A DNA stretch of 32,000 nt from Schaalia meyeri (GCF_900105015.1 NZ_FNLK01000010.1:90001-122000), one strand, 5' to 3'; shown: positions 1 to 18,103, numbered from the stretch's first letter. Notes: a model not told the origin generated them from the sequence alone. Program-made: numbers and translations.

Positions 1-2246
1 ATGGCCTCAAGGCCGAGCGCGGCGTCACGGGGGACACGGAACTGACCGCCGACGACCTGCGCGGCCTCGTTGACACCTTCAAGGGCATCGTCAAGGAACA
101 GACCGGGCAGGACTTCCCGCAGGACCCGCGCACCCAGATGGACATGGCCATCGAGGCCGTCTTCCGTTCCTGGAACACCGAGCGCGCCCGCATCTACCGC
201 CGCCGCGAGCGTATCCCCCACGACCTGGGTACCGCCGTCAACGTCTGCACCATGGTGTTCGGAAACATGGGCGAGAACTCCGGCACGGGCGTGTGCTTCA
301 CCCGCGACCCCTCTTCTGGCCACTCGGGCGTCTACGGTGATTACCTGGAGAACGCGCAGGGCGAGGACGTCGTCGCCGGCATCCGCAACACGCTGGCCCT
401 GGCTGACCTGAAGCGCATCAACAAGCCCGTGTACGACGAGCTGCGCTCCATCATGCGCAAGCTCGAGACGCACTACCGCGACATGTGCGACATCGAGTTC
501 ACGGTCGAGCGCGGCAAGCTGTGGATGCTGCAGACCCGCGTCGGCAAGCGCACGGCGGCAGCCGCGTTCCGTATCGCCACGCAGCTGGTTTCCGAAAAGC
601 TCATCACGCGCGACGAGTCCCTGGGTCGCGTGACCGGCGACCAGCTCACCCAGCTGATGTTCCCGCAGTTCGACGCGAAGGCCGACAAGGAACTGATCGC
701 GCGCGGCATGGCTGCCTCTCCGGGTGCGGCCGTCGGTAAGATTGCCTTCAATAACGAGCAGGCCATCCTCGCCGCCGAGAAGGGGCTCAAGACCGTCCTG
801 GTGCGGCGCGAAACCAACCCCGATGACCTGCCCGGCATGGTCGCCGCCGAGGGCGTGTTGACCGCGCGTGGCGGCAAGACCTCTCACGCCGCGGTCGTCG
901 CGCGCGGCATGGGTAAGACCTGCGTGTGTGGCGCCGAGGCGCTCGTGATCGATGCTGCGGCAGGCACCGTCACGATCGGCGACCTGGTTCTGACCGGCGA
1001 TGACACGATCGCGATCGACGGCCAGACCGGCGAGATCTTCCGCGGAGAGGTGCCCGTCACCGACTCACCCGTCACCACCTACCTGGCGGAGGGCCTCGAA
1101 GCGGGCCTGGCTGCCGCCGGCGAAGACGAGGGGACCCGCGAGCTGGTCAGGGCGGTCGACAAGATTCTGGCTCATGCCGACAAGGTCCGCCGCCTGCGCG
1201 TGCGCGCCAACGCGGACACCCCGCTGGACTCAAAGCGCGCCATCGAATTCGGCGCGGAGGGCATCGGATTGTGCCGCACCGAGCACATGTTCCTGGGCGA
1301 GCGGCGCCCGCTGGTCGAGCGAGCCATCCTCTCTGCCCCCGCCTCCCCCGAGCGTCAGGCCGCGTTCGACGAGCTGGAGAAGCTGCAAAAGCAGGACTTC
1401 CTGGAGATGCTTCAGGTCATGGATGGCAAGTCGATGACCGTGCGCCTCATCGACCCGCCGCTGCACGAGTTCATGCCGGCGCTCATCGAGTTGGAGACCA
1501 AGGTCGCCGTCGGCAAGGCCACCGGCACTTTAGATCCCGCGGACGAGAGCATGCTGGCAGAGGTGCGCCGCATGCACGAGCAGAACCCCATGCTGGGCCT
1601 GCGCGGCGTGCGCCTGGGCATCTACCTGCCCGGCCTGTTTGCCCTGCAGATGCGCGCCCTGTGTGAGGCCACCGCGGAGCTGGTCGCGCGAGGCCTGCAT
1701 CCCGAGCCGGAGATCATGGTGCCTCTGGTCGGCTCCGTGCGTGAGCTTCAGCTGGTGCGCGAGGAGGGCGAGGCCATCATCGCCGACGTGGCCCGGGCCC
1801 GCGGCGTGGATCTGTCGGGCGTGACGATCGGTGCGATGATCGAGCTGCCGCGCGCCGCGATGACCGCCGAGGATCTGGCTGAGGAAGCCGACTTCTTCAG
1901 CTTCGGCACGAACGACCTGACGCAGACCGTGTGGGGCTTCTCGCGCGACGACGTTGAGGGCGTTTTCTTCCCGCACTACATTGAGGCGGGAATCTTTGGC
2001 GTGTCCCCCTTCGAGTCCATCGATGTTCACGGCGTGGGCACCCTGGTCTCCGAGGGCGTGCGTCGCGCCCGCTCGACCAAGCCCGGCATCAAGCTCGGCG
2101 TGTGTGGCGAGCACGGGGGCGATCCGCTGTCGATCCACTTCTTCCACGGCGTGGGACTGGACTACGTGTCCTGCTCCCCGTTCCGCGTCCCGGTGGCTCG
2201 GCTGGAGGCCGGGCGCGCCGCGGTCGAGGACCACGTAGAGGAGTGA
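1..2246 (+). CDS. ppdK: pyruvate, phosphate dikinase, 5'-truncated by the window edge (codon phase begins at nt 3)
   Basis: The frame is open from nt 3 with no start codon. The translation carries PPDK hallmarks: GDYLENAQGEDVVAGIRNT, the phospho-histidine swivel motif TARGGKTSHAAVVARGMG, and C-terminal PEP/pyruvate-domain motifs GLCRTEHMF, FFSFGTNDLTQ, GVCGEHGGDP and SCSPFRVP. Stop TGA at 2244-2246. Confidence 0.95.
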   Translation, partial: GLKAERGVTGDTELTADDLRGLVDTFKGIVKEQTGQDFPQDPRTQMDMAIEAVFRSWNTERARIYRRRERIPHDLGTAVNVCTMVFGNMGENSGTGVCFTRDPSSGHSGVYGDYLENAQGEDVVAGIRNTLALADLKRINKPVYDELRSIMRKLETHYRDMCDIEFTVERGKLWMLQTRVGKRTAAAAFRIATQLVSEKLITRDESLGRVTGDQLTQLMFPQFDAKADKELIARGMAASPGAAVGKIAFNNEQAILAAEKGLKTVLVRRETNPDDLPGMVAAEGVLTARGGKTSHAAVVARGMGKTCVCGAEALVIDAAAGTVTIGDLVLTGDDTIAIDGQTGEIFRGEVPVTDSPVTTYLAEGLEAGLAAAGEDEGTRELVRAVDKILAHADKVRRLRVRANADTPLDSKRAIEFGAEGIGLCRTEHMFLGERRPLVERAILSAPASPERQAAFDELEKLQKQDFLEMLQVMDGKSMTVRLIDPPLHEFMPALIELETKVAVGKATGTLDPADESMLAEVRRMHEQNPMLGLRGVRLGIYLPGLFALQMRALCEATAELVARGLHPEPEIMVPLVGSVRELQLVREEGEAIIADVARARGVDLSGVTIGAMIELPRAAMTAEDLAEEADFFSFGTNDLTQTVWGFSRDDVEGVFFPHYIEAGIFGVSPFESIDVHGVGTLVSEGVRRARSTKPGIKLGVCGEHGGDPLSIHFFHGVGLDYVSCSPFRVPVARLEAGRAAVEDHVEE

Positions 2247-2330: not shown

Positions 2331-2491
2331 GGGGCGCGGTGACATGTTTCGTGGCCCCGCGGGTGCCCCAACGGCACGCGTTAACCCTCTTGGTTGCACG
2401 TTGGCGGGGCTGCTCGCCGCGCATCCCAGCGGGTTAGTGTGAGAGTCTTTGTTCCGGGCGCTGGCCGGTGTGGGGATTTGTGGCGTGGCTT

Positions 2492-2729
2492 GTGGGTGGG
2501 GGTGAAACTGTGGTCGCCCCTGCGTGGTGATTTGGTTTGGATTTTGGGGTTTTTGGCGGTGTGGGGGTGGTGTGGGTTTCATGCGGGCCTGGTTGGTTGT
2601 TGGTGTTCGTGGGTGGTGGCGGGGCCTGGCCGGGCTTCGAGATCGATCGCTCCGAGCCGTTAGGCTCGCGTGTGGCGATCGAGCGGGCGGGCTGCCGCCC
2701 ACGGACATATACACGGACACAAAAGGGCA
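2492..2729. repeat. direct repeat, copy 1 (left bracket of the iron module)
   Basis: 2492-2708 matches 12262-12478 (offset 9770) with 4 substitutions in 217 nt (2649 g/a, 2661 t/c, 2693 t/c, 2694 g/a). Copy 1 then has a 12-nt insertion (atatacacggac, a local duplication of cacggac) before the shared tail acaaaag[g/a]gca. Similarity is weak over the 24 nt to the left. Confidence 0.9.
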
Positions 2730-2826
2730 CGACAGTAAACTGGCGGGACGACTTCGGCAACAGGGGATAGGCCTTTGGTCCTTGCCACAAGTGGCTTGTG
2801 AGCATTATTGACGGTGACTATATGGT

Positions 2827-2848
2827 TACAATTTAGGCAATCCTAAAT
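2827..2848 (+). promoter_or_regulatory. putative -10 (TACAAT 2827-2832) overlapping an inverted repeat that resembles a DtxR/IdeR-type iron box
   Basis: An AT-rich island lies ~100 nt upstream of the FTR1 start. Perfect inverted repeat ATTTAGG-caat-CCTAAAT at 2831-2848. The 19-mer at 2828-2846 (acaatttaggcaatcctaa) matches the IdeR/DtxR consensus TTAGGTTAGGCTAACCTAA at 13/19 positions, mostly in the right half. TTGACG at 2808-2813 is only 13 nt from the -10, so the -35 is unclear. Confidence 0.35.
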
Positions 2849-2944
2849 GGGCTACTTTTCATCTGGGCGGCATGTGGCTACGCTGACTGCTGAGGAAATC
2901 CCATCAGCCCGGCGTCTCCCACGCGCCGGTTTTCCAGGAGGCTC

Positions 2945-4579
2945 GTGATAGCCGTGCTTCGCGTTTGCGCACAAAACGTTATCCAGCGGTTCGCCCGCGT
3001 TCTCATCATCGCCGTCATGGCGGCCCTCGCCCTGGCGATCATGGGCGCCCCCTCGCGCGCCCAGGGCCAGACCTGGCGCGACGTGGCCACCACCATCAAC
3101 GGCCTCATTGACGAGGGCGTCGAGGCCTTTAAGGCGGGTGATCCGAAGGGTGGTAAGAACAAGGTTAACGACGCGTATTACAAGAATTATGAGACGACTG
3201 GCATGGAGAAGCAGGTCCTGAGCCGCGTTTCCGGGGCCCGCGTCTCGCAGGTGGAGATGGAGTTCTCCCTGCTGAAAAAGGCCATGACCGATGGCGCCGC
3301 CGCGGATGTTGAGAGCCACGCGGCGACCCTCAAGCGGTACGTCGCGGAGGATGCCGCCACCCTGGACGGAGTATCCCCGGACCAGGGTGCGCAGGCATCG
3401 TCCGGCGACTACAGCCCGGGCGCGTGGGGGCAGGTCGCGCAGACCATTAACGGAATCCTTGCGGAGGGCGTCGAGGCCTTTAAGGCGGGTGATCCGAAGG
3501 GTGGTAAGAACAAGGTTAACGACGCGTATTACAAGAATTATGAGACGACTGGCATGGAGAAGCAGGTCCTGAGCCGCGTTTCCGGGGCCCGCGTCTCGCA
3601 GGTGGAGATGGAGTTCTCCCTGCTGAAAAAGGCCATGACCGACAACGACTCGAGCGCGGTCGACCAGCACTACGCGACCCTGTCGAACCTCATCCGTGAG
3701 GACGCTAACACCCTGGACGGGTACACCGGCAAGTCCGCTGAATCCTCAGCCTCCACCTCGTCCCCGTGGCTGGCGCAGTTCCTGCCCTCGCTCCTCGTCA
3801 TCCTGCGTGAGGGCATGGAAGCGATCCTGGTCGTCGCCGCGGTCCTCGCCTACCTGGGTAAGGCCGGACACAAGGACAAGGTCGGCGTCGTGTGGGGCGG
3901 TGTCGCACTGGCGCTGGCCCTCTCGATCGGCCTGGCGTTCCTGTTCAACTACGCGACCTCCCTGGCTGGCGCGAATCAGGAGCTCCTGGAGGGCGTCGCG
4001 GCCCTCTTCGCTGTCGCCATGCTGATCTGGGTGTCGAACTGGATGATCAACAAGTCCTCCAACCAGGCGTGGGACAAGTACATCAAGGAACAGACGGACG
4101 CATCCTTGACCAAAGGCTCCCTGCTGGGCCTGGCATTCATCTCATTCCTGGCGGTCCTGCGTGAGGGCGCCGAGACGATTCTCTTCTACGTGCCGATTGT
4201 TTCCGGCGCCGGCGGCAATGTCCACTACGTGTGGATCGGCCTGGGCGTGGGCGCCGTCATCCTGGTGGTCGTCTACCTGCTCATCCAGTTCGCCGCGCTG
4301 CGCATCCCGCTGCGTCCCTTCTTTACGATCACGTCGCTGCTGCTGGCCCTCATGGCCTTCACGTTCACGGGATCGGGCATCAAGGAGCTCCAGGAGGCGG
4401 ACGTTATCTCGCTGACGCCCGTTGGCGGCTTCCCCACTATTGACCTCTTGGGGATCTTCCCCCGAGTGGAGAACCTGGCCGCACAGGCCTTTGTTCTCAT
4501 CCTCATCGTCGGTCTCTATTTCTTCGGAAAAGCTCGCCTCGCTCGCGAGGCCGCCGCCCAGACGCGGGCCGAGGAGTGA
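2945..4579 (+). CDS. FTR1/EfeU-family iron permease fused to an N-terminal tandemly duplicated extracytoplasmic helical domain
   Basis: GTG 2945 (alternative GTG 2954) follows AGGAGG at 2936-2941. There is an N-terminal hydrophobic signal/anchor and two ~117-aa repeats. A polytopic C-terminal half carries both FTR1 RExxE motifs (LREGMEAILV and LREGAETILF). Confidence 0.9.
   Translation: MIAVLRVCAQNVIQRFARVLIIAVMAALALAIMGAPSRAQGQTWRDVATTINGLIDEGVEAFKAGDPKGGKNKVNDAYYKNYETTGMEKQVLSRVSGARVSQVEMEFSLLKKAMTDGAAADVESHAATLKRYVAEDAATLDGVSPDQGAQASSGDYSPGAWGQVAQTINGILAEGVEAFKAGDPKGGKNKVNDAYYKNYETTGMEKQVLSRVSGARVSQVEMEFSLLKKAMTDNDSSAVDQHYATLSNLIREDANTLDGYTGKSAESSASTSSPWLAQFLPSLLVILREGMEAILVVAAVLAYLGKAGHKDKVGVVWGGVALALALSIGLAFLFNYATSLAGANQELLEGVAALFAVAMLIWVSNWMINKSSNQAWDKYIKEQTDASLTKGSLLGLAFISFLAVLREGAETILFYVPIVSGAGGNVHYVWIGLGVGAVILVVVYLLIQFAALRIPLRPFFTITSLLLALMAFTFTGSGIKELQEADVISLTPVGGFPTIDLLGIFPRVENLAAQAFVLILIVGLYFFGKARLAREAAAQTRAEE
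3113..3291 (+). repeat. intragenic repeat unit A (179 bp, identical to 3464-3642)
   Basis: Base-by-base comparison shows 179/179 identity at an offset of 351 bp (117 codons). The flanks on both sides are clearly diverged. Confidence 0.95.
3464..3642 (+). repeat. intragenic repeat unit B (179 bp, identical to 3113-3291)
   Basis: See unit A. It encodes EGVEAFKAGDPKGGKNKVNDAYYKNYETTGMEKQVLSRVSGARVSQVEMEFSLLKKAMTD in both copies. Confidence 0.95.
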
Positions 4580-4635
4580 CATCAGTCGAGCGACACCGAC
4601 CCATCACCCAACCAACACGCTAAGGAGTTCATCGC

Positions 4636-5274
4636 ATGAAGCGCTCACTCTTCCGTGTCAGCGCGGCCCTGGCCACGCTGGCCCTCGCAGGCACCCTCGC
4701 GGCCTGCTCGAACAACTCGTCTGGTTCCACCGACACGAAGCCCTCCACCGATTCCTCGGCCAGCTCCGACTCGGGTGCGGCCGCCCCCGGTGAGGACGCG
4801 GGCTTCGAAGAGCAGCCCCTGGGCGACGACGTGCACGTCGGCCCGCTCGTCGTGGGCGGCGTCTACTTCCAGCCCGTCGACATGGAGCCCGCGATGGGTG
4901 TTTCAGCGGCGGAAGCGTCAATGCACATGGAAGCAGACATTCACGCTGCGGCTGATAACAAGCTCGGCTACGGCGCGGGTGACTTCGTGCCCGCCCTGAC
5001 CGTCAATTACACCATTAAGGACAAGTCCGGTAGCACGGTCCAGACGGGCACTTTCATGCCGATGAATGCCTCCGACGGCCCGCACTACGGCCTGAACATC
5101 CCCAAGCTGGAAGCCGGAACCTACGACGTGACCTTCTCGATCGAGTCACCGGAAAAGAACGGCTGGTTGCTCCACACCGATAAGGCTACCGGCGTTGAGG
5201 GCCGTTTCTGGACCGAACCGCTGGTCGCCGAGTTCAAGGATTGGCAGTGGGATCCCACGGCTGTTTCTTGGTGA
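4636..5274 (+). CDS. P19/Tp34-type periplasmic Fe2+/Cu-binding iron-transport lipoprotein
   Basis: AAGGAG at 4622-4627 lies 8 nt before ATG 4636. The signal peptide has lipobox TLAAC. Family-typical motifs are present: YFQPVDMEP, HMEADIHA, GDFVP, FMPMNASDGPHYG and RFWTEP. Confidence 0.9.
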   Translation: MKRSLFRVSAALATLALAGTLAACSNNSSGSTDTKPSTDSSASSDSGAAAPGEDAGFEEQPLGDDVHVGPLVVGGVYFQPVDMEPAMGVSAAEASMHMEADIHAAADNKLGYGAGDFVPALTVNYTIKDKSGSTVQTGTFMPMNASDGPHYGLNIPKLEAGTYDVTFSIESPEKNGWLLHTDKATGVEGRFWTEPLVAEFKDWQWDPTAVSW

Positions 5275-5360
5275 AGCTCAGCTGACGCGGGGACGAGGCA
5301 GCGGCTCCCATCGTGGGCCATGACCTCGCCCCGCGCCCCGCCAGGGGACTACACGTGACA

Positions 5361-5392
5361 CCGGAGTCGCACGACTTCGGTCCGCCTTTTTT
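5361..5392 (+). terminator. possible intra-operon attenuator between p19 and the downstream genes
   Basis: Hairpin ccggagtc/gacttcgg (8 bp including one G.U, loop gcac) at 5361-5380. A T6 run at 5387-5392 follows after a 6-nt spacer. The spacer makes it a weak or leaky terminator at best. Confidence 0.3.
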
Positions 5393-5407
5393 AGGAGAGG
5401 AAAACCA

Positions 5408-6730
5408 GTGCTTCAGCAGATGAGTGAAGCGACGTTGATCTTGCTGCTGACCATGCTCGCCGTTGGTGCGACCATCCGCTTCATGCCGACCGCGGGCCAC
5501 GGACGTCGCGGCAAAAAGGTGCGCTCGCGGGCCGTGTGGCTGGGCATCGGTCTGGGCATGGTCGCCTCCGCCGCGTTGACGATCATCAACGTGGAGGCCC
5601 CCAAGTCGGTCAACCGTCAGACCGTCGGCCTGTACACTCTGCCCATCGCCCTCGCCCTGGCCCTCGTTTTCCTGGCGCTCGTCGCTGTGCGATCGCGCCG
5701 CGTACGCCCGCACCTGCCCGGGGGGGATGCGGACGAGGAGGCACAGGCGGCCTCGGCGATTGAGACGGCGCTGCCCGGCGATGCCCTGGTGCGCCTCGTC
5801 GGTGCCCTGTACATTGCGTTCGCGCTGTTCCGATCCGTTCCGGTGGCGATGAGCCAGGCGGTCATGATGCTCTCCGGTGGGGTTGGAATCTATTCCACCC
5901 AGGCGGTGCTCGCCATCGTCGGCTACGCGCTGGCGTGGGGGCTCGTGTGCTTCCTGGCGTGGGTGTCCTACCGCCTGTGCGCGTGGAATAACCGGGTGTG
6001 GCCCGCGATGTTTATCCTGTGCGCGCTGGCCCTTGAGCACTCGTTGATGTTCGTGCGCATCCTCAAGGCCAAGCGGTGGATTTCTGTTCCCAAGGGCGCG
6101 TGGAACGTGATCGCGTGGTTCATCAACCACGAGGCCGTCTTTACGATCGTGGCCGCCCTGGCGCTCGGCGTGGTCGTGGCCCTCACCTGGTACGCCTCCC
6201 GATCGATCCCGACCGTGGGCGCGAACCCCGCCGAGGGGCGGCTGGGGCGCGCCCGCTCCCGCCTCTACAAGTCCATGGCCGGCACCGCTGCCATCGGCTA
6301 CCTGTGCGGCGCGCTGCTGATCACCGTGGGCGTCGCGATAGGCAGCCAGGAGGTCGAGCTTTCGGCTCCCGAGGCTCACAGCGTCGTCGACGATCAGGTG
6401 AGCGTCAACCTGGCCGACATCTCCGACGGGCACCTGCACCGTTTCGAGTACACGACGTCGGGCGGCGTGAAGGTGCGCTTCATCGTCATCCAAAAATCCG
6501 GGTCCTCCTTCGGCGTGGGGCTGGACGCCTGCGAGATCTGCGGGCCGTCCGGCTATTACGAGAAGGATGGCAAGGTCATCTGCAAGCTGTGCGAGGTGGC
6601 GATGAACATCGCGACCATCGGCTTTAAGGGCGGCTGCAACCCGATTCCCATCGAATACAAGGTCTCTAACGGGACCCTGACAGTTCCCATCTCGGCCCTC
6701 GAGGCCGCGGCCCCCATCTTCGCAAAGTAG
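5408..6730 (+). CDS. polytopic membrane protein with a C-terminal DUF2318-type Cys-rich domain (Cj1660-like)
   Basis: GTG 5408 lies 7 nt after AGGAGAGG (5393-5400). There are about 7 hydrophobic helices. The C-terminal domain reads HLHRFEY...ACEICGPSGYYEKDGKVICKLCEVAMNIATIGFKGGCNPIP (CxxC...CxxC...GGCNP). It sits directly after ftr1-p19, as in Campylobacter. Confidence 0.8.
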   Translation: MLQQMSEATLILLLTMLAVGATIRFMPTAGHGRRGKKVRSRAVWLGIGLGMVASAALTIINVEAPKSVNRQTVGLYTLPIALALALVFLALVAVRSRRVRPHLPGGDADEEAQAASAIETALPGDALVRLVGALYIAFALFRSVPVAMSQAVMMLSGGVGIYSTQAVLAIVGYALAWGLVCFLAWVSYRLCAWNNRVWPAMFILCALALEHSLMFVRILKAKRWISVPKGAWNVIAWFINHEAVFTIVAALALGVVVALTWYASRSIPTVGANPAEGRLGRARSRLYKSMAGTAAIGYLCGALLITVGVAIGSQEVELSAPEAHSVVDDQVSVNLADISDGHLHRFEYTTSGGVKVRFIVIQKSGSSFGVGLDACEICGPSGYYEKDGKVICKLCEVAMNIATIGFKGGCNPIPIEYKVSNGTLTVPISALEAAAPIFAK

Positions 6731-6740
6731 AGGCGCGCGC

Positions 6741-8018
6741 TTGTTTATCCGAATGCTCCGAGGGACCCTGACCAGGCGCGGTAACCGCCACCTCATGATC
6801 GCCCTGACCATCGCGTTGGGGGCGTGCGTGGCCACCTCCATGCTCTCCGTCATGTTCAACGTCGGCGACAAGGTTAACCAGGAGCTTAAGTCCTACGGCG
6901 CCAACATTGTCGTGCGCCCGCAGGGGGCTGCCGTCCTGAATGACCTGTACTCCACGGGCGAGTCCAGCGAATCGCGGACCTATCTGCGCGAGAGCGAGCT
7001 GGGCAGCATTAAGACGATCTTTTGGACCTACAACATCCTCGACTTCGCGCCCTTGCTGAGCGTGTCCGCCACCGACGCCTCGGGCGCGCGCGTCCCCACG
7101 ACCGGCACCTGGTTTGGCCACCACCTTGAGCTCGCGACCGGCGAGAGCGTGGACACCGGCCTGGACAAGCTGCGCGGCTGGTGGGGCATCGACGGGGCGT
7201 GGCCGACCGACGACGACGCCACGGGGGCGATAATCGGAGCGACCTACGCGGCCGACAAAGGTCTGTCCGTCGGCGGCTCCTTCACGCTCACGCGCGGGCA
7301 GGCGAGCCGAGAGTTCACCGTCCGCGGCGTCGTCACCACCGGGGATGACGCGGATCGCGGCGTCTACATTCAGTTGGCCGCCGCCCAGGAGCTGATTGGT
7401 CGCGAAGGCGCCGTCGGCAGCGTCGAGGTCTCAGCCCTGACCACACCCGACAACGACCTGGCGCGCAAGGCCGCGAAGAACCCGAATTCGCTGAGCGTGT
7501 CCGAAAAGGAAACCTGGTACTGCACGGCCTACGTCTCTTCGATCGCCTACCAGATCGAGGAAGTCATGACGGACTCGGTTGCCCGCCCCGTCCGGCAGGT
7601 CGCCCAGTCCGAGGGCACCATCCTGGAGAAGACGCAGCTGCTCATGGTCCTCGTGACCGTCCTGGCGCTCATCGCCTCCGCCCTGGCCATCGCGAACCTG
7701 GTGACCGCGGGCGTCATGGAACGCTCCAGCGAAATCGGCCTGATGAAGGCCGTGGGCGCCAAGGATAAACAGATCATCGCGCTGTTCTTGACCGAGACGA
7801 TCGTCGTTGGCCTGGTCGGTGGCGTCATCGGTTACTGCGCCGGCCTTGGGCTGGCGCAGGCGATCGGGTACATGGTGTTCCACTCCTCCATCGCTTTTGC
7901 GCCCGTCGTCGTCGGACTCGTTGCCGTCCTCGTCATCATCGTGGTCCTGGGCGCTTCCATCCCGGCGATCCGATACCTGCTGCGCCTCAACGCGGCGGAA
8001 GTCCTCCACGGAAGGTGA
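6741..8018 (+). CDS. ABC transporter permease, FtsX/MacB type (large extracytoplasmic loop)
   Basis: TM1, then a ~240-aa loop, then a C-terminal FtsX 3-TM bundle with MERSSEIGLMKAVGAKDKQII. The start is TTG 6741 (alternative ATG 6753). Its stop overlaps the next start (GTGA at 8015-8018). Confidence 0.85.
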   Translation: MFIRMLRGTLTRRGNRHLMIALTIALGACVATSMLSVMFNVGDKVNQELKSYGANIVVRPQGAAVLNDLYSTGESSESRTYLRESELGSIKTIFWTYNILDFAPLLSVSATDASGARVPTTGTWFGHHLELATGESVDTGLDKLRGWWGIDGAWPTDDDATGAIIGATYAADKGLSVGGSFTLTRGQASREFTVRGVVTTGDDADRGVYIQLAAAQELIGREGAVGSVEVSALTTPDNDLARKAAKNPNSLSVSEKETWYCTAYVSSIAYQIEEVMTDSVARPVRQVAQSEGTILEKTQLLMVLVTVLALIASALAIANLVTAGVMERSSEIGLMKAVGAKDKQIIALFLTETIVVGLVGGVIGYCAGLGLAQAIGYMVFHSSIAFAPVVVGLVAVLVIIVVLGASIPAIRYLLRLNAAEVLHGR

Positions 8019-9232
8019 TCCCCATGTCCAGACGCGCAATGTTTTGGCGGATGGTCACCTCTTCCATCCTCCGCCGCCGCTCCCGCGTCCTCATCGCTGT
8101 CCTCGCTGTCGCCATCGGCGCGACCACCCTGTCCGGCCTGGTTACCATCGCCGTGGACGTTCCCGCGCAGATGGCCCGCGAGATCCGCTCGTACGGCGCC
8201 AACCTCGTTCTCACCCCCAGCGGGGATGGGACCATCACGGACGAGGCCGTGGCCGCGGCTACCGCCCAGGTGCCCTCGGGTGCCCTCGTTGGCTCCGCCG
8301 CGTTCGACTACGAGACCGTTACCATTAACGAACAACCGTACGTCGCGGGTGGCACCGACCTCGACGCCGTTCGGTCGATGAACCCCTTCTGGTTCGTGGA
8401 CGGTGCGTGGCCGGATGCCGCCGGCCAGGTGCTCGTGGGCGAACAGATCGCCTCCACGATCGGCGTCAAGGCCGGAGATGCGATCACCGTCAGTCAGCTC
8501 GACGGCGGCGCCTCCGCGAAGGCCGCCCGGGCCAGCGGCCAGCAGTCCGGTCCCGCGGACGCGTCCCAGGCCTCGTCCCTGTCCGTCGATCCGCGCACCG
8601 TGACACTGCGCGTGGCCGGGATCCTCAAGACCGGCGGAAACGAAGACGGCTACCTGTACATGTCCACCCAGGACATGTCCGCCCTCACCGGGGCCCCCGT
8701 GGCCGTGTCCATCGCGGAATACTCCATCGCGCTCGAGGGCGCGCAGCTGGGCGCAGTCGCCGACGCCATGAACGCGGCAAACCCCGACATCCACGCCCAG
8801 ACCGTGCGACGCCTCGCACAATCGGACACGGGAGTCCTCGACATGCTCCGATCGCTGCTGCTGGTCATCACCGCCATCGTCCTGGCCCTGACCATGATCG
8901 GCGTGTCCACCACGATGATCGCCGTCGTCACCGAACGACGCAACGAGATAGGCCTGCGCAAGGCGCTGGGGGCCACCGCGCGATCCATCACCTCCGAGTT
9001 CATGGGCGAAGGCGTCATGCTCGGTGCGATCGGCGGAATTATCGGCGCGGGGGCCGGATACGCCCTGGCGGCCCTGATCTCCCACTCCGTGTTCCACCGC
9101 TCGATCTCCCTGCATCCCGTCATCTGGATCGCCACCGTCGCGTGCTCGATCCTCATCGCCGTCCTCGCCTGCCTCCCGCCCGTGCGCCGCGCACTGGCCG
9201 TTGACCCCGCGCTCGTCCTGCGTGGAGAATGA
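8015..9232 (+). CDS. ABC transporter permease, FtsX/MacB type (second paralogue)
   Basis: Same architecture, with TERRNEIGLRKALGATARSI. The start is GTG 8015 or ATG 8024. The stop overlaps the ATPase start (ATGA at 9229-9232). Confidence 0.85.
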   Translation: MIPMSRRAMFWRMVTSSILRRRSRVLIAVLAVAIGATTLSGLVTIAVDVPAQMAREIRSYGANLVLTPSGDGTITDEAVAAATAQVPSGALVGSAAFDYETVTINEQPYVAGGTDLDAVRSMNPFWFVDGAWPDAAGQVLVGEQIASTIGVKAGDAITVSQLDGGASAKAARASGQQSGPADASQASSLSVDPRTVTLRVAGILKTGGNEDGYLYMSTQDMSALTGAPVAVSIAEYSIALEGAQLGAVADAMNAANPDIHAQTVRRLAQSDTGVLDMLRSLLLVITAIVLALTMIGVSTTMIAVVTERRNEIGLRKALGATARSITSEFMGEGVMLGAIGGIIGAGAGYALAALISHSVFHRSISLHPVIWIATVACSILIAVLACLPPVRRALAVDPALVLRGE

Positions 9233-10044
9233 GAGAACCCATGAACACGCCCGATAACCCCACCGACTCGAACGAATCGGGCGAGGCGGCCCACGCCTCG
9301 TCAAAGGACACGCTGCTCGCCCTCGAAGGCGTCTCCAAGATCTACGGCGACCTGCACGCGCTGGACAACGTTTCGCTGGAGATCCCGCGCGGCCAGTGGG
9401 TGTCCATCGTCGGACCCTCCGGCAGCGGCAAGACGACCCTCATGAACATCGTCGGGGCTATGGACACCGCCACGAAGGGCACCGTCACCCTGGACGGCCG
9501 CGACATCTCCGACTTGACCGCCGACGAACTCACCGAGGTGCGCTGCCGGACCATCGGGCTGGTTTTTCAACAGTTCCACCTCATCGGGCACCTCACCGCC
9601 CTCGAAAACGTCATGGTCGCCCAGTACTATCACTCGATGCCCGACGAAAAGGAAGCCCTGGAGGCGCTGGACCGGGTGGGCCTGGCCGACCGCGCCACGC
9701 ACCTGCCCCGCCAGCTCTCCGGCGGCGAACAGCAGCGAGTGTGCGTGGCCCGCGCGCTCATCAACTACCCGAAGCTGGTCCTCGCCGACGAGCCGACCGG
9801 CAACCTGGACGAAACCAACGAAGAGATCGTCCTCGACCTGTTCAACCAGCTCCACCGTGACGGCACGACCCTCATGGTCGTCACCCACGACGCGCTGGTC
9901 GCCGAACAGGGACAACGCGAGATTCGACTGGACCACGGCAGGGTCGTTAAAGAGACGTGGCACGACCACGACGTACGCGCCTGCGACGCGGCAGGCCCCG
10001 GAGACAGCGATGCACAGCGCAGCGGAAAGGACAAGGTGCGATGA
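9229..10044 (+). CDS. ABC transporter ATP-binding protein (MacB/LolD-like)
   Basis: Walker A GPSGSGKTT, Q-loop, signature LSGGEQQR, Walker B LVLADEPTGNLD, H-loop VTHD. The stop overlaps the next start (ATGA at 10041-10044). Confidence 0.95.
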   Translation: MREPMNTPDNPTDSNESGEAAHASSKDTLLALEGVSKIYGDLHALDNVSLEIPRGQWVSIVGPSGSGKTTLMNIVGAMDTATKGTVTLDGRDISDLTADELTEVRCRTIGLVFQQFHLIGHLTALENVMVAQYYHSMPDEKEALEALDRVGLADRATHLPRQLSGGEQQRVCVARALINYPKLVLADEPTGNLDETNEEIVLDLFNQLHRDGTTLMVVTHDALVAEQGQREIRLDHGRVVKETWHDHDVRACDAAGPGDSDAQRSGKDKVR

Positions 10045-10637
10045 GCGCTCGAATCAATCACGATGGCCACACCCCCGGAGCTGCCCGGTGGAGGGCACCC
10101 GCCTCCCGCGCGGCCCTCGGCGCCCTCGGGGCACTCGGGGCCACGATCCTCGCCGCGTGCCAGCCCTCCACGGGCCTCGACATGAGCAAACCCATGAGCG
10201 ATGGAACGTGGAGCGCCCAGTCCAACGCGGACGACCAGGGCTCCATCGGCACGATCACCATCACCGTCGAGGGCGGGCACATCACCGCCACCTCCTATGA
10301 GACGGCGCTGGCGGACGGCACCGACAAGGGCGCAAACTATGGAAAGAGCTCCTCCGGTGAGGTCTTTAACCAGGACTACTACAAGAAGGCCCAGGCCGCC
10401 GTCGCCTCCTACCGTGAGTACTCCGACAACCTCACCAAGGTCGGCGACCCCGCGAAGGTCGACGTCATCACGGGGGCGACCGTGGCCCACCGGCAGTTCG
10501 TTCAGGCCGCCATTCGCGCCATCGCCGCCGCCCAGGGCACTTCGCCCGACGGAGCCGACGACATCACCATCCCTGGCCTGAACGACTCCACCAAGGACGC
10601 AGGCCTGGACCAGGACCTTGGAGGCGGCGACGACTGA
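10041..10637 (+). CDS. FMN-binding-domain lipoprotein, predicted ApbE substrate
   Basis: ATG 10041 is coupled to the ATPase stop; the longer ORF from 9957 lies inside the ATPase gene. The signal peptide has lipobox ILAAC (Cys codon 10158-10160). The FMN_bind-like fold starts at DGTWSAQ. The flavinylation motif Dxx(s/t)gA(s/t) is matched exactly by DVITGAT (10461-10481). Confidence 0.85.
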   Translation: MSARINHDGHTPGAARWRAPASRAALGALGALGATILAACQPSTGLDMSKPMSDGTWSAQSNADDQGSIGTITITVEGGHITATSYETALADGTDKGANYGKSSSGEVFNQDYYKKAQAAVASYREYSDNLTKVGDPAKVDVITGATVAHRQFVQAAIRAIAAAQGTSPDGADDITIPGLNDSTKDAGLDQDLGGGDD

Positions 10638-11901
10638 CGCTTCGCCGACCTGGCGCTCCTCTTTTCCCGCGATGGGCACCCGCGTCGACATCGTCGGCTG
10701 GGGCGGGGACGGCATGGCGATCGTGAACGCCGTCGTGGAGCTGGTCGCGCGCCACGAGGAGCTGTGGAGCGTGTATCGGCCAACCTCCGAAATATCGCGG
10801 CTCAACGCGTCTGGCCGGGTGGGCCAGGCAGGGGCCGGTGGAGTCGACGTCGGCGCAGGGGACCGGGGTTCCGTGGGGGCGGATGACCCGCTCAGGGGGG
10901 CAGGCCTGGTGGTGCAGGGCGGCCATGGCCTGGTCGTTAGTGCCGACACCGACCGCCTGCTGGAGGACGCGCTGGCGCTCGCGCGCGCCACGGGCGGAGC
11001 CTTCAATCCGCTGATCGGGCCGCTCGTTGCCGCGTGGGACGTCAAGGCCATGCGCGCCGCCTACCTCGCCGGCGCTCCGCTTCCGCCCGCTCCCGGACCG
11101 GCCCGCATCCGGGCGGCGCTGCGCGCATCCGACTCGGGGCTGCTCGTGCGAATCGGCCAGCGGCGCTGGCTGCTGCGGGCGCCGGGAGACCGGCCAGATG
11201 CGGCCTCGGGCGGTCATCCGGGCGGTGGGCGCGGCCGCACCCCGGGCGCTGCACCGGGGGTCTTCCCGAGCGTTGACCTGGGCGGCGTCGCAAAAGGCTA
11301 CACGGCCGACGCGTGCCGCGACCTGGCCGTGGACCTGGGGGCCGCGGGGGTGCTCGTGTCGGTGGGTACCTCGTCCGTGGCCGCCTTCGGTACCCGTGCG
11401 GACGGTTCGCCGTGGCGCGTGGGGGTGCGTGACCCCGACGGGGCACCCACTGACGTGTGCGGCGTGGTCGAGTTGCCCGCGGATGGCATGGCGTCCCTGT
11501 CGACGTCGGGGGATAACCTGGGGCCGCTGGGGGCCCACGTCGCGGGAGCGGCAGATTCGGGCGCCTCGGCCGCGTCCGGTTGCGCAGCGGCGGTTCCCGC
11601 CGACCAGGCGCGCGCCGATCGGGCGGGCTCAGGCGGCTGCGGAGGTGCGCTCCCGCGCCTGCGAGACCACCACATCATCGATCCGCGGACCGGGCGTCCC
11701 GCGTGCTCGGGAGTGCGTCAGGTCAGCGTCGTCGCTTCCTCGGGTGTGCTCGCGGAGGCGCTATCCACCGCGATCCTCGTCGATCCATCCTGTGTGCGCG
11801 ACGAGGCCGCGGCGCAGCGGTCCCACGCGGGCGCCCCCGAGGGCCGGTGGCGGATCGTGCGGCTGTTTGGCGAGGCTGGGGTCAGTGGGGCTGTGGAATA
11901 G
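10618..11901 (+). CDS. apbE: ApbE-family FAD:protein FMN transferase (no detectable signal peptide)
   Basis: Motifs FPAMGTRVDI, GGAFNPLIGPL, GGVAKGYTAD, HHIIDPRTGRP and LAEALSTAILV. The start is TTG 10618. An in-frame TGA at 10579-10581 limits any N-terminal extension. The gene overlaps the FMN-binding gene by 20 nt. Confidence 0.85.
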   Translation: MEAATTDASPTWRSSFPAMGTRVDIVGWGGDGMAIVNAVVELVARHEELWSVYRPTSEISRLNASGRVGQAGAGGVDVGAGDRGSVGADDPLRGAGLVVQGGHGLVVSADTDRLLEDALALARATGGAFNPLIGPLVAAWDVKAMRAAYLAGAPLPPAPGPARIRAALRASDSGLLVRIGQRRWLLRAPGDRPDAASGGHPGGGRGRTPGAAPGVFPSVDLGGVAKGYTADACRDLAVDLGAAGVLVSVGTSSVAAFGTRADGSPWRVGVRDPDGAPTDVCGVVELPADGMASLSTSGDNLGPLGAHVAGAADSGASAASGCAAAVPADQARADRAGSGGCGGALPRLRDHHIIDPRTGRPACSGVRQVSVVASSGVLAEALSTAILVDPSCVRDEAAAQRSHAGAPEGRWRIVRLFGEAGVSGAVE

Positions 11902-12352
11902 TGGTGTCGTCGATTTGCTGGAAGCCGTCATTGGGCGGTGCGGGCGTTTGATACGCGGTGGGGTTATCCTCGATGCCGCCGTCGGGCGCCGGCGGGCACA
12001 CCCGGGCCATGGTCGATTGTCTTTTGAACCATGCCACCAGCGCGATGACGACGCCGATACAGACGTAGATGATGTGCCTGGTCGTGGGGTTGTCCGCCAG
12101 GTTCGGGGCGACCTCCTCGACGACCCTCAGGACAAGGGTGAGCATGATGACCAGGCTGGCGGCGACGACGGGGAAGCTGATGACCGCGTACAGGCGCGGG
12201 GACGTGGGGGACGCTGTGCTGGTCTTGCATCTTGATTCTGTGGGGTGGTCTGTGGGTGTTCGTGGGTGGGGGTGAAACTGTGGTCGCCCCTGCGTGGTGA
12301 TTTGGTTTGGATTTTGGGGTTTTTGGCGGTGTGGGGGTGGTGTGGGTTTCAT
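11882..12352 (-). CDS. small two-helix membrane protein, start uncertain (ATG 12352 inside the repeat, ATG 12145 or GTG 12478)
   Basis: GC3-rich coding signal and two hydrophobic helices (LYAVISFPVVAASLVIMLTLVL and HIIYVCIGVVIALVAWF). The first helix lies upstream of ATG 12145, and no ATG/GTG/TTG occurs between 12145 and 12352. This favours a start inside repeat copy 2 or a non-canonical start. The 3' end overlaps the apbE 3' end by 20 nt (convergent). Confidence 0.45.
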   Translation of the reverse strand: MKPTPPPHRQKPQNPNQITTQGRPQFHPHPRTPTDHPTESRCKTSTASPTSPRLYAVISFPVVAASLVIMLTLVLRVVEEVAPNLADNPTTRHIIYVCIGVVIALVAWFKRQSTMARVCPPAPDGGIEDNPTAYQTPAPPNDGFQQIDDTTIPQPH

Positions 12353-12487
12353 GCGGGCCTGGTTGGTTGTTGGTGTTCGTGGGTGGTGGCGGGGCCTGGC
12401 CGGGCTTCGAGATCGATCACTCCGAGCCGTCAGGCTCGCGTGTGGCGATCGAGCGGGCGGGCCACCGCCCACGGACACAAAAGAGCA
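12262..12487. repeat. direct repeat, copy 2 (right bracket of the iron module)
   Basis: See copy 1. A partial third copy of the terminal hairpin-plus-tail motif (GGGTGG-gcct-CCGCCC-acgggcacaaaaag) follows at 12514-12543. Confidence 0.9.
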
Positions 12488-12566
12488 GCAAGCAGGCAGC
12501 GTGGCAAATATCCGGGTGGGCCTCCGCCCACGGGCACAAAAAGCAACCAGAAACGACCGGGGTCTT

Positions 12567-16810: not shown

Positions 16811-18103
16811 ATGAGACAACGCGGAACCATCCGCATGGGACTGACGGCGCTGGCTGCCTGCGCCCTCCTGGTCCTGCCCCAGGTGGCGCAGGCAGCACCC
16901 TCCGAGGAAGAAATCGCGGCGGCCAAAGCGGCCGAAGAGGCCGCGAAGATGAGTGTCGCCCAGATTGAGGTCAAGCTGGCCGAAGTCAGCGCTAACGCCG
17001 CAGCTGCCACCCAGAGGGCGCAAATCGCCGGAGAAGACCTCAACGAAGCCAATATCGCCCTGGCCGAGGCCACCGCGACCGCCTCGGCCGCCTCGGACGA
17101 CGCCGACGCCGCCGAGGCGGCATTCCAGGAAGGCAAACAACAGATTGCCGCCGTCGCCCAGACCGCCTACCGGAACGGTGGCGGCTCTCTCGACGCCATC
17201 GCGCCCTACCTCGACTCCGACGGGCTGCGCAGCGTCGAAACCAAGCAGGCGGGCATTAACTCCTTCTCGGCCTCGGCCGAGGCGAAGATGCAGAACGTCG
17301 CCGCCCTCGAACAGGTCGCCAAGGTCACCCGCGACGCCGCGAACGCCGCGCTGGCCAACCAGGAAGCGGCCACCGCCGCGGTCCAGGCCCGCACCGACGC
17401 CGCAAACAGGGCAGCGGCCGCAGCTCAGAACGAGGCCGCCCTCGTCGCCGCCCAGCGCAGCGCCTACGTGCAGGAGCTGGCCGCCAAGCAGAACACGACC
17501 GTCGACCTCATCAACCAGCGCGAGGCGGCCCTCGAAGCCGAACGCCAAGAGGCCGCACGCATCGCCGCCGAGCAGGCCGCCGCAGCCGCCGAAGAACGCC
17601 GTCAGGCACAGGCCGCCGCTGCCGAGCAGGCCGCGTCCCAGGCCTCATCTTCCGCAGGCGATGACGACGACGATTCCCCGGGCAGCCCCGCGCCCTCGCG
17701 CCCGGCACCCCCCTACTCTCCTCCCGCCAGCTCGGGCGGCGGCGCATCCACCGCGATCGCGGCCGCGAAGAGCTACCTCGGCGTGCCTTACGTGTGGGGC
17801 GGCGAATCCTACGGCGGCGTGGACTGCTCCGGCCTGACCATGCTTGCCTGGCGCAGCGCGGGCGTCAACCTGCCGCACCTGTCGCGCGCCCAGTACGGAT
17901 ACGGCACGCACGTGCCGATCGGGAGCATGGAGCCTGGAGACCTGATCTTCTGGTCCTCCAACGGCGCGCAGTCCGGCATCTACCACGTCGCCATGTACCT
18001 GGGCGGCGGGCAGATGATCGAGGCCCCCACCTTCGGCGTGCCCGTGCGCATCACCGGCGTCTACAGCTGGGGATCCATCATGCCCTACGCTGTGAGGCTG
18101 TGA
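16811..18103 (+). CDS. secreted RipA-like peptidoglycan endopeptidase (coiled-coil N-domain, Pro-rich linker, C-terminal NlpC/P60)
   Basis: Signal peptide ...LVLPQVAQA|AP, a long Ala/Glu/Gln coiled-coil region, and an NlpC/P60 domain with GVPYVWGGES, catalytic DCSGL and YHVAMYLG. Confidence 0.92.
   Translation: MRQRGTIRMGLTALAACALLVLPQVAQAAPSEEEIAAAKAAEEAAKMSVAQIEVKLAEVSANAAAATQRAQIAGEDLNEANIALAEATATASAASDDADAAEAAFQEGKQQIAAVAQTAYRNGGGSLDAIAPYLDSDGLRSVETKQAGINSFSASAEAKMQNVAALEQVAKVTRDAANAALANQEAATAAVQARTDAANRAAAAAQNEAALVAAQRSAYVQELAAKQNTTVDLINQREAALEAERQEAARIAAEQAAAAAEERRQAQAAAAEQAASQASSSAGDDDDDSPGSPAPSRPAPPYSPPASSGGGASTAIAAAKSYLGVPYVWGGESYGGVDCSGLTMLAWRSAGVNLPHLSRAQYGYGTHVPIGSMEPGDLIFWSSNGAQSGIYHVAMYLGGGQMIEAPTFGVPVRITGVYSWGSIMPYAVRL

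Follow-up and report, generated by a model that had tools for sequence, protein, structure and literature searches.

The window, a 32-kb stretch of the Schaalia meyeri genome that is 100% identical to S. meyeri CP066065.1, contains an iron-uptake operon downstream of the 3' part of the gene for pyruvate, phosphate dikinase (ppdK), together with two near-identical direct repeats that flank the operon (Table 1). The operon encodes an FTR1 permease, P19 (Fe2+ transport), an FtrD-like protein, two FtsX/MacB-type permeases, an ABC ATPase, a 198-aa FMN-binding-like protein and ApbE, that is, 8 called genes rather than the nine counted in an earlier, sequence-only reading of this DNA. Its first half has a GC content of 62-65%, slightly below that of the flanks. 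The palindrome that precedes FTR1 is a candidate operator, presumably recognized by a metal regulator. The same arrangement, with ppdK followed by FTR1-P19-FtrD-FtsX-FtsX-ABC-FMN-ApbE, is present in a sister species (L036/L037; FtsX and PpdK are 89% and 95% identical, respectively, to those of the window) and in Schaalia sp. ZJ1691 (L038; FtsX 76% identical), that is, ppdK adjoins the operon in three Schaalia species, S. meyeri included.

Table 1. Features of the iron-operon locus, with positions counted from the first nucleotide of the window
Feature	Position	Strand	Basis or remark
ppdK, 3' part (pyruvate, phosphate dikinase)	138..2246	+	conserved left neighbour of the operon
Filler 'a', type II-specific	2378..2491	.	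stands where W712-type sequences have 1.15 kb
Left repeat copy	2492..2707	+	mosaic of core hairpin, linker and palindromic element M3
Core, left copy	2498..2588	+	left arm, T-rich spacer, right arm
M3, left copy	2603..2709	+	40 pairs, fold z-scores, copies at other loci
Palindrome ATTTAGG-CAAT-CCTAAAT	2831..2848	.	upstream of FTR1, outside the repeat, conserved in sister species
Iron-uptake operon	2945..11901	+	Pfam, NCBIfam, gene calls; order and ppdK neighbour conserved in other Schaalia
Remnant of 190-aa four-TM gene, 5'-truncated, C-terminal 107 aa	11882..12203	-	W712 homology ends at 12203; tblastn covers residues 84-190 only
Filler 'b', type II-specific	12204..12261	.	strain comparison with W712-type
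Right repeat copy	12262..12477	+	mosaic like the left copy: core hairpin, linker, M3
Core, right copy	12268..12358	+	same sequence as left core
M3, right copy	12373..12479	+	carries all left/right mismatches
Solitary terminal hairpin unit, partial M3	12500..12542	+	GGGTGGGCCTCCGCCCACGGGCAC at 12514-12537

A repeat search of the 32-kb window yielded a direct pair of 239 nt (2469-2707 and 12239-12477) with a spacing of 9770 nt. The high-identity tract within this pair, delimited by MAFFT alignment and a per-segment count, comprises 216 nt with only 4 mismatches, at 2649, 2661, 2693 and 2694, whereas the first 157 nt (2492-2648) are the same in both copies. At its edges, identity drops to ~60% in the 20 nt leftward and to the background level rightward. 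There is no second comparable pair in the 32-kb window, so the 2492/12262 repeat is far beyond chance. Thus, the near-identical direct repeats in the same orientation that the sequence-only reading had described are real, and they indeed enclose the iron operon. Searches of the plasmid and phage collections gave no match to the repeat. In Rfam, the whole window produced 0 hits at the gathering threshold, and a search of positions 2250-2950 at an E-value threshold gave a single chance match (E = 0.4) located outside the repeat. A literature search gave nothing on either of the two families that make up the repeat, both of which are also absent from Rfam.

The core, the first of the two modules, is a hairpin of ~90 nt. 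In the left copy, the arm GTGAAAC(N6)CGCCCCTGC at 2502-2526 pairs with the opposite arm GGGGGTGGTGTGGGTTTCATGC at 2563-2584. The resulting long, G.U-rich hairpin is formed on the + strand only (fold z = -3.35, vs -0.67 on the - strand) and is retained in 7 family members, with nearly all of its 26 pairs kept; the arms are the most conserved blocks of the core. Two diverged core copies, in direct orientation, flank a DUF559 gene between trkH and trkA (nhmmer E ~3e-9) on contigs with a TrkH sequence annotated as S. meyeri, and the hairpin is even more pronounced in one of these (L032; z = -7.6). On the trkH-trkA contigs, the core arms are expanded to 42-nt arrays, with an arm copy number of 1 to 5, whereas inside the window, the arms are single-copy. 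In 4/4 core copies, the C/A-rich strand is located upstream of, and sense to, an adjoining gene (the CPBP and 190-aa genes in W712, trkA and the DUF559 gene in L032). This uniform orientation, combined with the strand-specific fold, hints at a function, as RNA or as single-stranded DNA.

The second module, the palindromic element M3, is ~110 nt long and, in the left copy, consists of a 5' terminal inverted repeat GTGTTCGTGGGTGGTGGC at 2603-2620, a central hairpin at 2644-2681 and a 3' terminal inverted repeat GCYRCCGCCCACGGACAC at 2691-2709. The terminal inverted repeats (GTGYYCGTGGGYGGYGGC ... GCCRCCGCCCACGGRCAC) span ~18 nt, as expected of a MITE, and the fold (z = -4.9 on the + strand and -3.1 on the - strand) is a single long hairpin of the REP type. 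Across 10 copies, there are 40 paired columns, 9 of which show compensatory changes; for example, the terminal repeats read GTGTTCG...CGGACAC in S. meyeri and GTGCCCG...CGGGCAC or GTGCCGG...CCGGCAC elsewhere. Copies 87-93% identical to M3 are found at unrelated intergenic loci, in both orientations and in some cases arrayed, on contigs of the S. odontolytica group, the proteins of which are named S. odontolytica, Pauljensenia or Actinomyces sp. We identified at least 7 full copies at at least 4 unrelated loci of this group, for instance, near groEL/UDG and near ilvBNC/Asp-Al_Ex. In S. meyeri, the ~55-60 kb that we estimate to have been read contain just the two operon-flanking copies and partial units. 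All 4 mismatches between the left and right repeats fall in M3, one in a stem and three in hairpin loops. A third, partial terminal hairpin unit, missing from the earlier description, lies directly to the right of the right repeat; its counterpart adjoins the left copy in W712-type strains, where we denote it the extension.

No target-site duplication is evident among the aligned M3 copies, we found no IS with terminal inverted repeats like those of M3 that could be its parent, and there is no RAYT (IS200/IS605-like tyrosine transposase) among the window ORFs scanned to 24935. The sole case of presence and absence of M3 (L004 vs W712, right site) involves a deletion between GGGCC microhomologies that removed part of the element. 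This case looks like a microhomology deletion rather than a precise excision.

Comparison of the available S. meyeri sequences reveals two haplotypes, the differences between which map exactly to both repeat sites, in line with the recombination hot spot suggested by the sequence-only reading. Type I (W712, L043, L061-L064, L003-L005 and L053) carries, at the left site, an IS30 remnant, the CPBP gene and the left repeat with the extension, and at the right site, the intact 190-aa gene and a right core that is ~82% identical to the left one, mostly without M3, which is missing in W712. The type I contigs assembled from short reads in four runs all end at one identical base in the left core, suggesting that there are further copies. 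Type II includes the window and the isolate GCA_001813985.1, in each of which both sites were read; partial evidence comes from L046/L047, for the left-site filler only, and from the metagenome contigs L030 and L040, for the truncated gene and the right-site filler only. In type II, filler 'b' and a left-type core (12204-12469) replace ~520 bp of W712-type sequence (L001 17572-18091) that spans the divergent core and, of the 190-aa gene, the 5' half plus the upstream region. The membrane-protein gene reported earlier as small and convergent lies between the repeats as described, but is the 3' remnant of the 190-aa gene, which is intact elsewhere. At the left site, the W712-type sequence replaced by filler 'a' contains the 3' remnant of an IS30-family transposase and the CPBP/Rce1-like gene, both of which are absent from the window. 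No source could be identified for either filler.

The two type II genomes differ in which part of the repeat is homogenized. In the window, the left and right cores are identical and the M3 copies differ at 4 sites, whereas in GCA_001813985.1, no difference exists between the M3 copies, both of which have a strain-specific 'TTCACG', and the cores differ at ~8 sites. This reciprocal pattern of left/right identity indicates gene conversion, which, judging from the identity patterns in just these two type II genomes, would be the homogenizing mechanism, and supports concerted evolution of the two copies within strains as read from the sequences.

The repeats are probably non-coding mosaic intergenic repeats that later exchanged sequence, rather than the boundaries of a mobile cassette. 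The copies each consist of the ~90-nt core, with its hairpin on the G/T-rich strand, the ~110-nt REPIN/MITE-like M3 and at least one solitary terminal hairpin unit. In the order of events that we infer, an older composite unit of ~330 bp would have reached both sides of an operon that already adjoined ppdK, the composite copies having arisen within the S. meyeri lineage, most likely, by segmental duplication or ectopic recombination. Two insertions of one composite element are an alternative origin for the two copies. Afterwards, homologous recombination, as gene conversion or unequal crossing-over, would have exchanged sequence between the copies, which would also have attracted deletions. 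In the window haplotype, the left-type core appears to have overwritten the diverged right core, and the 5' half of the 190-aa gene would have been lost in the same event or in a linked one. Being ~216 bp long and 98% identical, the direct repeats would be expected to make the 9.8-kb iron operon a unit of RecA-dependent duplication or deletion, such that amplification or excision of the operon can be envisaged.

M3 resembles the REP, BIME and REPIN elements of Proteobacteria in being short, GC-rich, extragenic and palindromic, with co-varying arms. Like a REP doublet, it consists of two inverted units of ~18-24 nt around a spacer, forming a ~110-nt hairpin, and as in REP/BIME systems, solitary units occur beside it and modules are mixed into mosaics, in both orientations and at unrelated intergenic sites. 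However, the hosts of M3 are Actinomycetaceae, its sequence does not resemble known REPs, and the adjoining core is strand-asymmetric in that G.T/G.U pairs form on only one of its strands, and is expandable to 42-nt arrays; to our knowledge, neither strand asymmetry nor such arm arrays are REP/BIME features. With MITEs, such as Correia/NEMIS and ERIC, M3 shares the size (~110-135 nt), the ~18-nt terminal inverted repeats, the lack of coding capacity, the interspersed distribution and the location in or beside operons, but it differs in the lack of a target-site duplication, of a matching parent IS and, in the one case at hand, of precise excision. The core arms on the trkH-trkA contigs are reminiscent of mycobacterial MIRU, being 42-nt tandem arrays of variable copy number that are intergenic within an operon. 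Unlike MIRU, the arms are single-copy in the window, and the arrays are opposing arm sets around a spacer; we know of no sequence relationship between the core and mycobacterial MIRU. The locus as a whole is comparable to amplifiable or deletable chromosomal units bounded by direct repeats (rrn operons, IS copies or REP clusters), in which tandem duplication depends on RecA, given that 9.8 kb lie between 216-bp, 98% identical repeats, that the rearrangements map to the repeats and that junction-type contigs exist, although the repeats in the window are far shorter than rrn or IS, and amplification or deletion is here hypothetical.

The junction-type contigs come from two separate metagenomes and connect the end of the operon to its start, as the earlier reading had predicted for a circle or a duplication. 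In one of these (L030; OEAP01042775.1, 1108 bp), window positions 11805-12481, with one repeat and a 50-nt extension of the W712-left type, are followed by positions 2684-3064; in the other (L040; ERZ25503192 NODE_50968, 706 bp), positions 11782-12477 run into ACATATACAC, which flanks the left site on its right. The predicted junction is present in two independent contigs, which are either junctions of tandem duplications or circles, or assembly chimeras. If these contigs represent real molecules, the repeats would be active endpoints for tandem duplication, amplification or circular excision, and the type II arrangement itself would be the outcome of cycles of duplication followed by deletion. 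We consider this possible but unlikely; it would extend rather than contradict the mosaic-repeat explanation. The truncated gene and filler 'b', which are specific to type II, are found on both contigs, the SNP combinations of these contigs do not amount to a simple mix of either sequenced type II genome, and left/right mosaicism in both directions is an expected product of unequal crossing-over. However, the contigs are short, one of them has low coverage (5x), and the repeat is longer than the k-mers expected of short-read assemblers (for example, the name of L037 includes k141), so that assemblers could plausibly have followed the wrong route at a collapsed repeat. Furthermore, L040 extends past the repeat by only 7 diagnostic bases, L030 joins the left flank of type II to an extension that is otherwise found only in type I, which fits a chimera of co-occurring strains, and in both type II isolate assemblies, the operon is present once and a 615-aa gene comes after the repeat.

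A purely 'selfish repeat' account seems to leave the orientation and the strand-specific fold of the core unexplained. The core could be a functional cis element or a small RNA that occurs twice because two genes share a control region, acting either as a structured RNA that is read from the G/U-rich strand and is antisense to the adjacent genes for membrane proteins, or as the C/A-rich, unstructured leader or promoter region of these genes. The position of the C/A-rich strand relative to the adjacent genes, the strong hairpin on the + strand alone, the retention of nearly all pairs and the conservation of the arms are all compatible with such a role. We nevertheless deem it improbable. The core has no Rfam match and shows just two weak G.U to U.G double changes, one-sided G.U/G.C changes being expected by chance on a G/T-rich strand; the variable number of arms in the 42-nt arrays is unusual for a defined RNA; and in the window, the gene downstream of the left core is absent and the one downstream of the right core is truncated, so that no intact target is left.

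Highly doubtful is the possibility that the core family (GTGAAAC-N6-CGCCCCTGC ... GGGGGTGGTSTGGGTTTCAYGC) is a strand-specific recombination site of an undescribed Schaalia cassette system, in which the cores would mobilize the genes or the operon between them and L030 and L040 would be real products. The genes for the DUF559 protein, the CPBP protease and the 190-aa membrane protein would then be single genes inserted or swapped beside a core, and core pairs could mobilize or amplify anything between them, the whole iron operon included. Similarly to an integron attC site, the core is an imperfect palindrome with a strand-asymmetric fold and complementary ends (...AAAC / GTTT...), and its two direct copies between trkH and trkA bracket a single, inserted-looking gene. 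However, GTGAAAC and GTTTCAY match the attC consensus RYYYAAC/GTTRRRY at only 5/7 positions each, the core arms are arrayed, and no integron integrase was detected in the scanned window ORFs or in seven large ORFs of L032. The core does not qualify as an integron attC site. We know of no integrons in Actinobacteria.

Finally, it is extremely unlikely that the 9.8-kb segment was gained horizontally, as an island or an integrative cassette, with the repeats as attL and attR for a recombinase encoded elsewhere: the bracketing of a functional module by direct repeats, the slightly lower GC content, the IS30 remnant in type I strains and the core-like elements around the apparently inserted DUF559 gene would fit, but the proposal is largely refuted by the conserved synteny, given that the operon adjoins ppdK in two other Schaalia species, in which a core profile search of the respective loci (L036/L037 and L038) found no match, so that the operon is ancestral at this site. 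The near-identity of the repeats, taken earlier as a mark of integration, is limited to one haplotype, the divergent right core without M3 being the state in most S. meyeri contigs. No empty site was found among the S. meyeri contigs that extend past ppdK into the left site or from the pyrophosphatase side to the right site. The absence of an integrase, transposase or tRNA stated in the sequence-only reading was confirmed by Pfam searches covering the major ORFs between 138 and 24935 and by a tRNA search of the window; the only transposase trace at the boundary is the IS30 remnant, which is confined to the other haplotype. That reading had also proposed that occurrence at many unrelated loci would point to a generic interspersed repeat, and both modules do belong to interspersed families at unrelated loci, a partial match to that description.

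Overall, despite the near-perfect direct repeats that flank it, the S. meyeri iron operon is core, vertically inherited DNA, and a wrong annotation is averted. The repeats represent two undescribed intergenic repeat families of oral Actinomycetaceae, a REPIN/MITE-like palindrome and a strand-asymmetric hairpin core. Several contigs stop inside the repeats, and one stops ~50 nt before them; the repeats appear to break short-read assemblies at the iron-operon locus, which is relevant to the binning and comparison of Schaalia genomes. They also mark spots of gene gain, gene loss or gene truncation among S. meyeri strains. Provided that the junction contigs are real, this commensal and opportunist would be able, by means of the repeats, to adjust the dosage of a ferrous-iron uptake system in a simple manner.

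A repeat search of the window returned a single long direct pair, which alignment and a per-segment count resolved into a sharply bounded tract of near identity (Table). The four mismatches between the left and right copies lie at 2649, 2661, 2693 and 2694, leaving the first 157 nt without a difference; beyond the tract, identity drops to ~60% across the 20 nt on its left side and to background on its right. The sequence-only reading of near-identical direct repeats around an iron operon was thus borne out, as was its statement that tRNA, integrase and transposase genes are lacking (from the window in the case of tRNA, and from the major ORFs between 138 and 24935 scanned against Pfam for the other two). 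Its account of the enclosed content held for the promoter, the operon and a small gene but not for the number of operon genes, which is eight rather than nine: the copies enclose the FTR1 promoter region, eight co-directional genes (encoding the FTR1 permease, P19, an FtrD-like protein, two FtsX/MacB-type permeases, an ABC ATPase, a 198-aa FMN-binding-like protein and ApbE), and then a short minus-strand ORF. There is no Rfam family in the window, none was found for the repeat itself at either gathering or E-value thresholds, and plasmid and phage collections contained no match to the repeat.

Coordinates of features in the window and in the compared loci
Feature	Sequence	Position	Strand	Character
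Long direct pair	window	2469-2707 / 12239-12477		9770 nt spacing
High-identity tract	window	2492-2707 / 12262-12477		4 mismatches in 216 nt
Core	window	2498-2588		left arm GTGAAAC-N6-CGCCCCTGC, T-rich spacer, right arm GGGGGTGGTGTGGGTTTCATGC
M3	window	2603-2709		palindromic, ~18-nt terminal inverted repeats, central hairpin
Solitary terminal hairpin unit	window	12514-12537		GGGYGGGC-NN-CCGCCCACGGRCAC
Filler a (type II)	window	2378-2491		114 nt
Filler b (type II)	window	12204-12261		~58 nt
Filler b plus left-type core (type II)	window	12204-12469		replaces ~520 bp of type I, L001 17572-18091
Palindrome	window	2831-2848		perfect 7-4-7, ATTTAGG-CAAT-CCTAAAT
FTR1 tandem duplication	window	3092-3291 and 3443-3642		351 bp, in frame, 97% identical
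Terminator-like hairpin	window	5360-5391		followed by T run
615-aa protein gene	window	13222-15069	+	no Pfam/NCBIfam match
Repeat pair in 615-aa gene	window	14227-14295 / 14416-14484		80% identical, 189 nt spacing
IS30-family transposase 3' remnant	L001 (W712)	6636-6759		directly after ppdK terminator
M3-family element	L036 (sister species)	4237-4343	-	flank of iron operon
M3-family element	L036 (sister species)	17938-18053	+	flank of iron operon
Core-like elements	L032 (trk locus)	7657-8010 and 9642-10044		direct
DUF559/MTES_1575 endonuclease-like gene	L032 (trk locus)	8307-9248	-	between trkH and trkA
M3 copy	L059 (IMGVR_UViG_3300007208_000105)	8055-8160		very end of contig

When the two copies in the window were aligned with their counterparts in other strains, three kinds of module emerged: a core, a palindromic element (M3) and solitary terminal hairpin units. 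The core is predicted to fold into a long G.U-rich hairpin on the plus strand only (z = -3.35 vs -0.67 on the minus strand), and M3 folds with z = -4.9 on the plus and -3.1 on the minus strand; of the four positions at which the left and right copies differ, one is in a stem and the others are in hairpin loops. A solitary terminal hairpin unit follows the right copy, and its counterpart, a homologous "extension", lies after the left copy in strains with the haplotype of W712 (type I). Because such units follow both copies, the ancestral duplicated unit was apparently longer, ~330 bp. We rejected the repeat as a coding sequence because the minus-strand open frame (MKPTPPPH...), which includes the most conserved 20-mer and runs into the membrane-protein remnant, is frameshifted in the W712 left copy, because the left/right differences lack third-position bias, and because the true 190-aa protein begins downstream of a stop codon.

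Both modules occur elsewhere. Copies of M3, 87-93% identical, are found in both orientations at unrelated intergenic sites on contigs of other species, among them a site close to groEL/UDG and a site close to ilvBNC and an Asp-Al_Ex transporter; the contigs were recovered by a six-frame "protein" query through spurious ORFs that cross arrays of M3, a query that missed even self proteins and so carries no weight as a negative. Across 10 copies, 9 of the 40 predicted base pairs show compensatory changes, for example in the terminal inverted repeat. In a sister species, M3-family elements are present in both intergenic flanks of the iron operon, in inverted orientation and without the core. An IMG/VR search yielded one chance match and one M3 copy, which sits at the terminus of a predicted viral contig (L059) of far lower GC (51%) than the GC-rich element itself and may represent a mobile element/host junction or an assembly break at the repeat.

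With the core profile, matches were obtained on three metagenome contigs (L031-L033), all of the same locus, whose TrkH is annotated as S. meyeri. Here, two core-like elements flank a DUF559 gene, an arrangement that resembles the insertion of a single gene between members of the core element family. The arms of the elements at this locus are 42-nt tandem arrays of 2-5 units, and their central hairpin is highly stable, though on the plus strand only (z = -7.6). The core hairpin is kept in all seven aligned family members, with support from only two weak double changes. Four core copies share one orientation toward an adjacent gene (the CPBP gene, the 190-aa gene, trkA and the DUF559 gene): each lies upstream of its gene, with the C/A-rich strand as the sense strand. 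This orientation and the bracketing of the DUF559 gene are not explained by a purely selfish-repeat view. A metagenome scan with a 20-mer detected only one contig joining the operon ends (L030) and the trkH/trkA contigs, plus two chance matches. An exact 18-mer scan of genome contigs gave 17 chance matches and no Schaalia; given that the same 18-mer sits on S. meyeri-attributed contigs (L032), the S. meyeri genome was evidently outside that scan. The possibility, raised from the sequence alone, that this is a generic interspersed repeat is supported in part by the M3 copies in other species and the core copies at the trk locus.

The operon itself appears to be older than the repeats. CP012072.1, which we take to be strain W712, is ~99% identical to the window across the operon and diverges from it exactly at both repeat sites. 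Two further species were reached through homologs of the mid-operon permease, namely, the sister species (L036/L037; FtsX 89% and PpdK ~95% identical to those of S. meyeri), where neighboring proteins bear the names S. odontolytica, Pauljensenia or Actinomyces sp., and Schaalia sp. ZJ1691 (L038; FtsX 76% identical). In both, ppdK is followed at once by the same iron operon, and a profile search of these loci gave no match to the core. Because the synteny is kept in two species without the core, the operon adjoined ppdK before the repeats arose; thus, the operon is not an insertion, and the proposed cassette integration at att-like sites is essentially excluded. In the intergenic region upstream of FTR1, the alignment between the sister species and S. 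meyeri begins no earlier than the FTR1 promoter. To the right of the operon, the species are not alike: the sister species and ZJ1691 have a gene for a 1086-1091-aa FAD-binding/Fe-S protein further downstream, and therefore the right repeat marks a synteny breakpoint.

Several features of the operon and its right flank are separate from the repeats. The palindrome upstream of FTR1 is conserved in the sister species and may, we would guess, serve as the operator of a metal regulator, whether of the DtxR/IdeR type or another. The tandem duplication in the 5' part of FTR1 is missing from contigs L007 and L008 and, therefore, varies between strains; it is also a point at which several short-read contigs break. 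Inside the operon, a terminator-like hairpin that separates the genes for P19 and the FtrD-like protein may act as an internal attenuator. The 615-aa protein adjoining the right repeat, 658 aa long in strains of the W712 type, resembles a variable protein with internal repeats.

The repeat sites come in two haplotypes. Type I was read in W712 (L001, L048, L060), L043, L061-L064, L003-L005 and L053. The full type II arrangement was read in the window and in isolate GCA_001813985.1 (L044 plus L049, without assembly gaps); in addition, the filler at the left site alone was visible in L046 and L047, and the state of the right site alone in L030 and L040. Exact-protein look-ups for type II contigs (87-aa remnant, ApbE, FTR1) returned essentially the source genome and L040 only. 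At the type I left site, ppdK is followed by an IS30-family remnant (tblastn matches to annotated IS30/IS1086 transposases), an abutting gene for a CPBP/Rce1-like protein only 45% identical to the syntenic CPBP protein of the sister species, and the left repeat with its extension. In type II, the remnant and the CPBP gene are absent, and filler a is found instead. At the type I right site, an intact 190-aa four-TM gene precedes a core ~82% identical to the left core, and M3 is usually deleted, being kept in L004. In type II, the 190-aa gene is cut at 12203, and the right core is of the left type. Given this truncation, type II is derived on the right side; the small membrane-protein gene noted from the sequence alone is indeed present, but as a remnant of a gene intact in type I. 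Fillers a and b have no homolog in any fetched locus.

Identity between the copies is patchy. In the window, the left and right cores are identical and M3 differs at 4 sites, whereas in GCA_001813985.1, the M3 copies are identical, sharing a strain-specific TTCACG, and the cores differ at ~8 sites. Such two-way, strain-differing identity is what repeated gene conversion or unequal crossing-over would be expected to produce, judging from these two genomes. The type II left-copy boundary is closer to the right copy than to the type I left copy. The type II right copy need not stem from a single tandem duplication alone: immediately to the left of its core, the bases have kept a resemblance to the type I right site, and a conversion patch combined with a deletion therefore fits at least as well.

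The circular form predicted from the sequence alone finds a possible counterpart in two independent short contigs in which one repeat joins the truncated gene and filler of type II to the right flank of the left site. L030 extends 381 nt beyond the junction into the FTR1 upstream region, and L040 only 7 diagnostic bases past the repeat. This operon-end/repeat/operon-start junction is expected from a tandem duplication or an excised circle, but a mis-resolved, collapsed repeat of 216-240 nt would give the same. L030 combines the type II left flank with an extension otherwise found in type I only, and its flanking SNPs fit neither haplotype cleanly. Several short-read contigs end within the repeats, and L046 ends ~50 nt short of the left one. 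Four type I contigs, L061-L064, come from different runs and yet share one end point, 30 nt inside the left core (~2531 in the window), which suggests that those genomes carry a further near-identical copy of the core at another site.

Overall, we consider it reasonably probable that the repeats are a mosaic of two interspersed families of hairpin-forming intergenic repeats, that this mosaic would have been duplicated to both sides of an ancestral operon, and that the copies were later homogenized by recombination in one haplotype, with collateral deletions of neighboring genes. Plausibly, this would leave the iron operon of S. meyeri liable to be duplicated or deleted as a unit.
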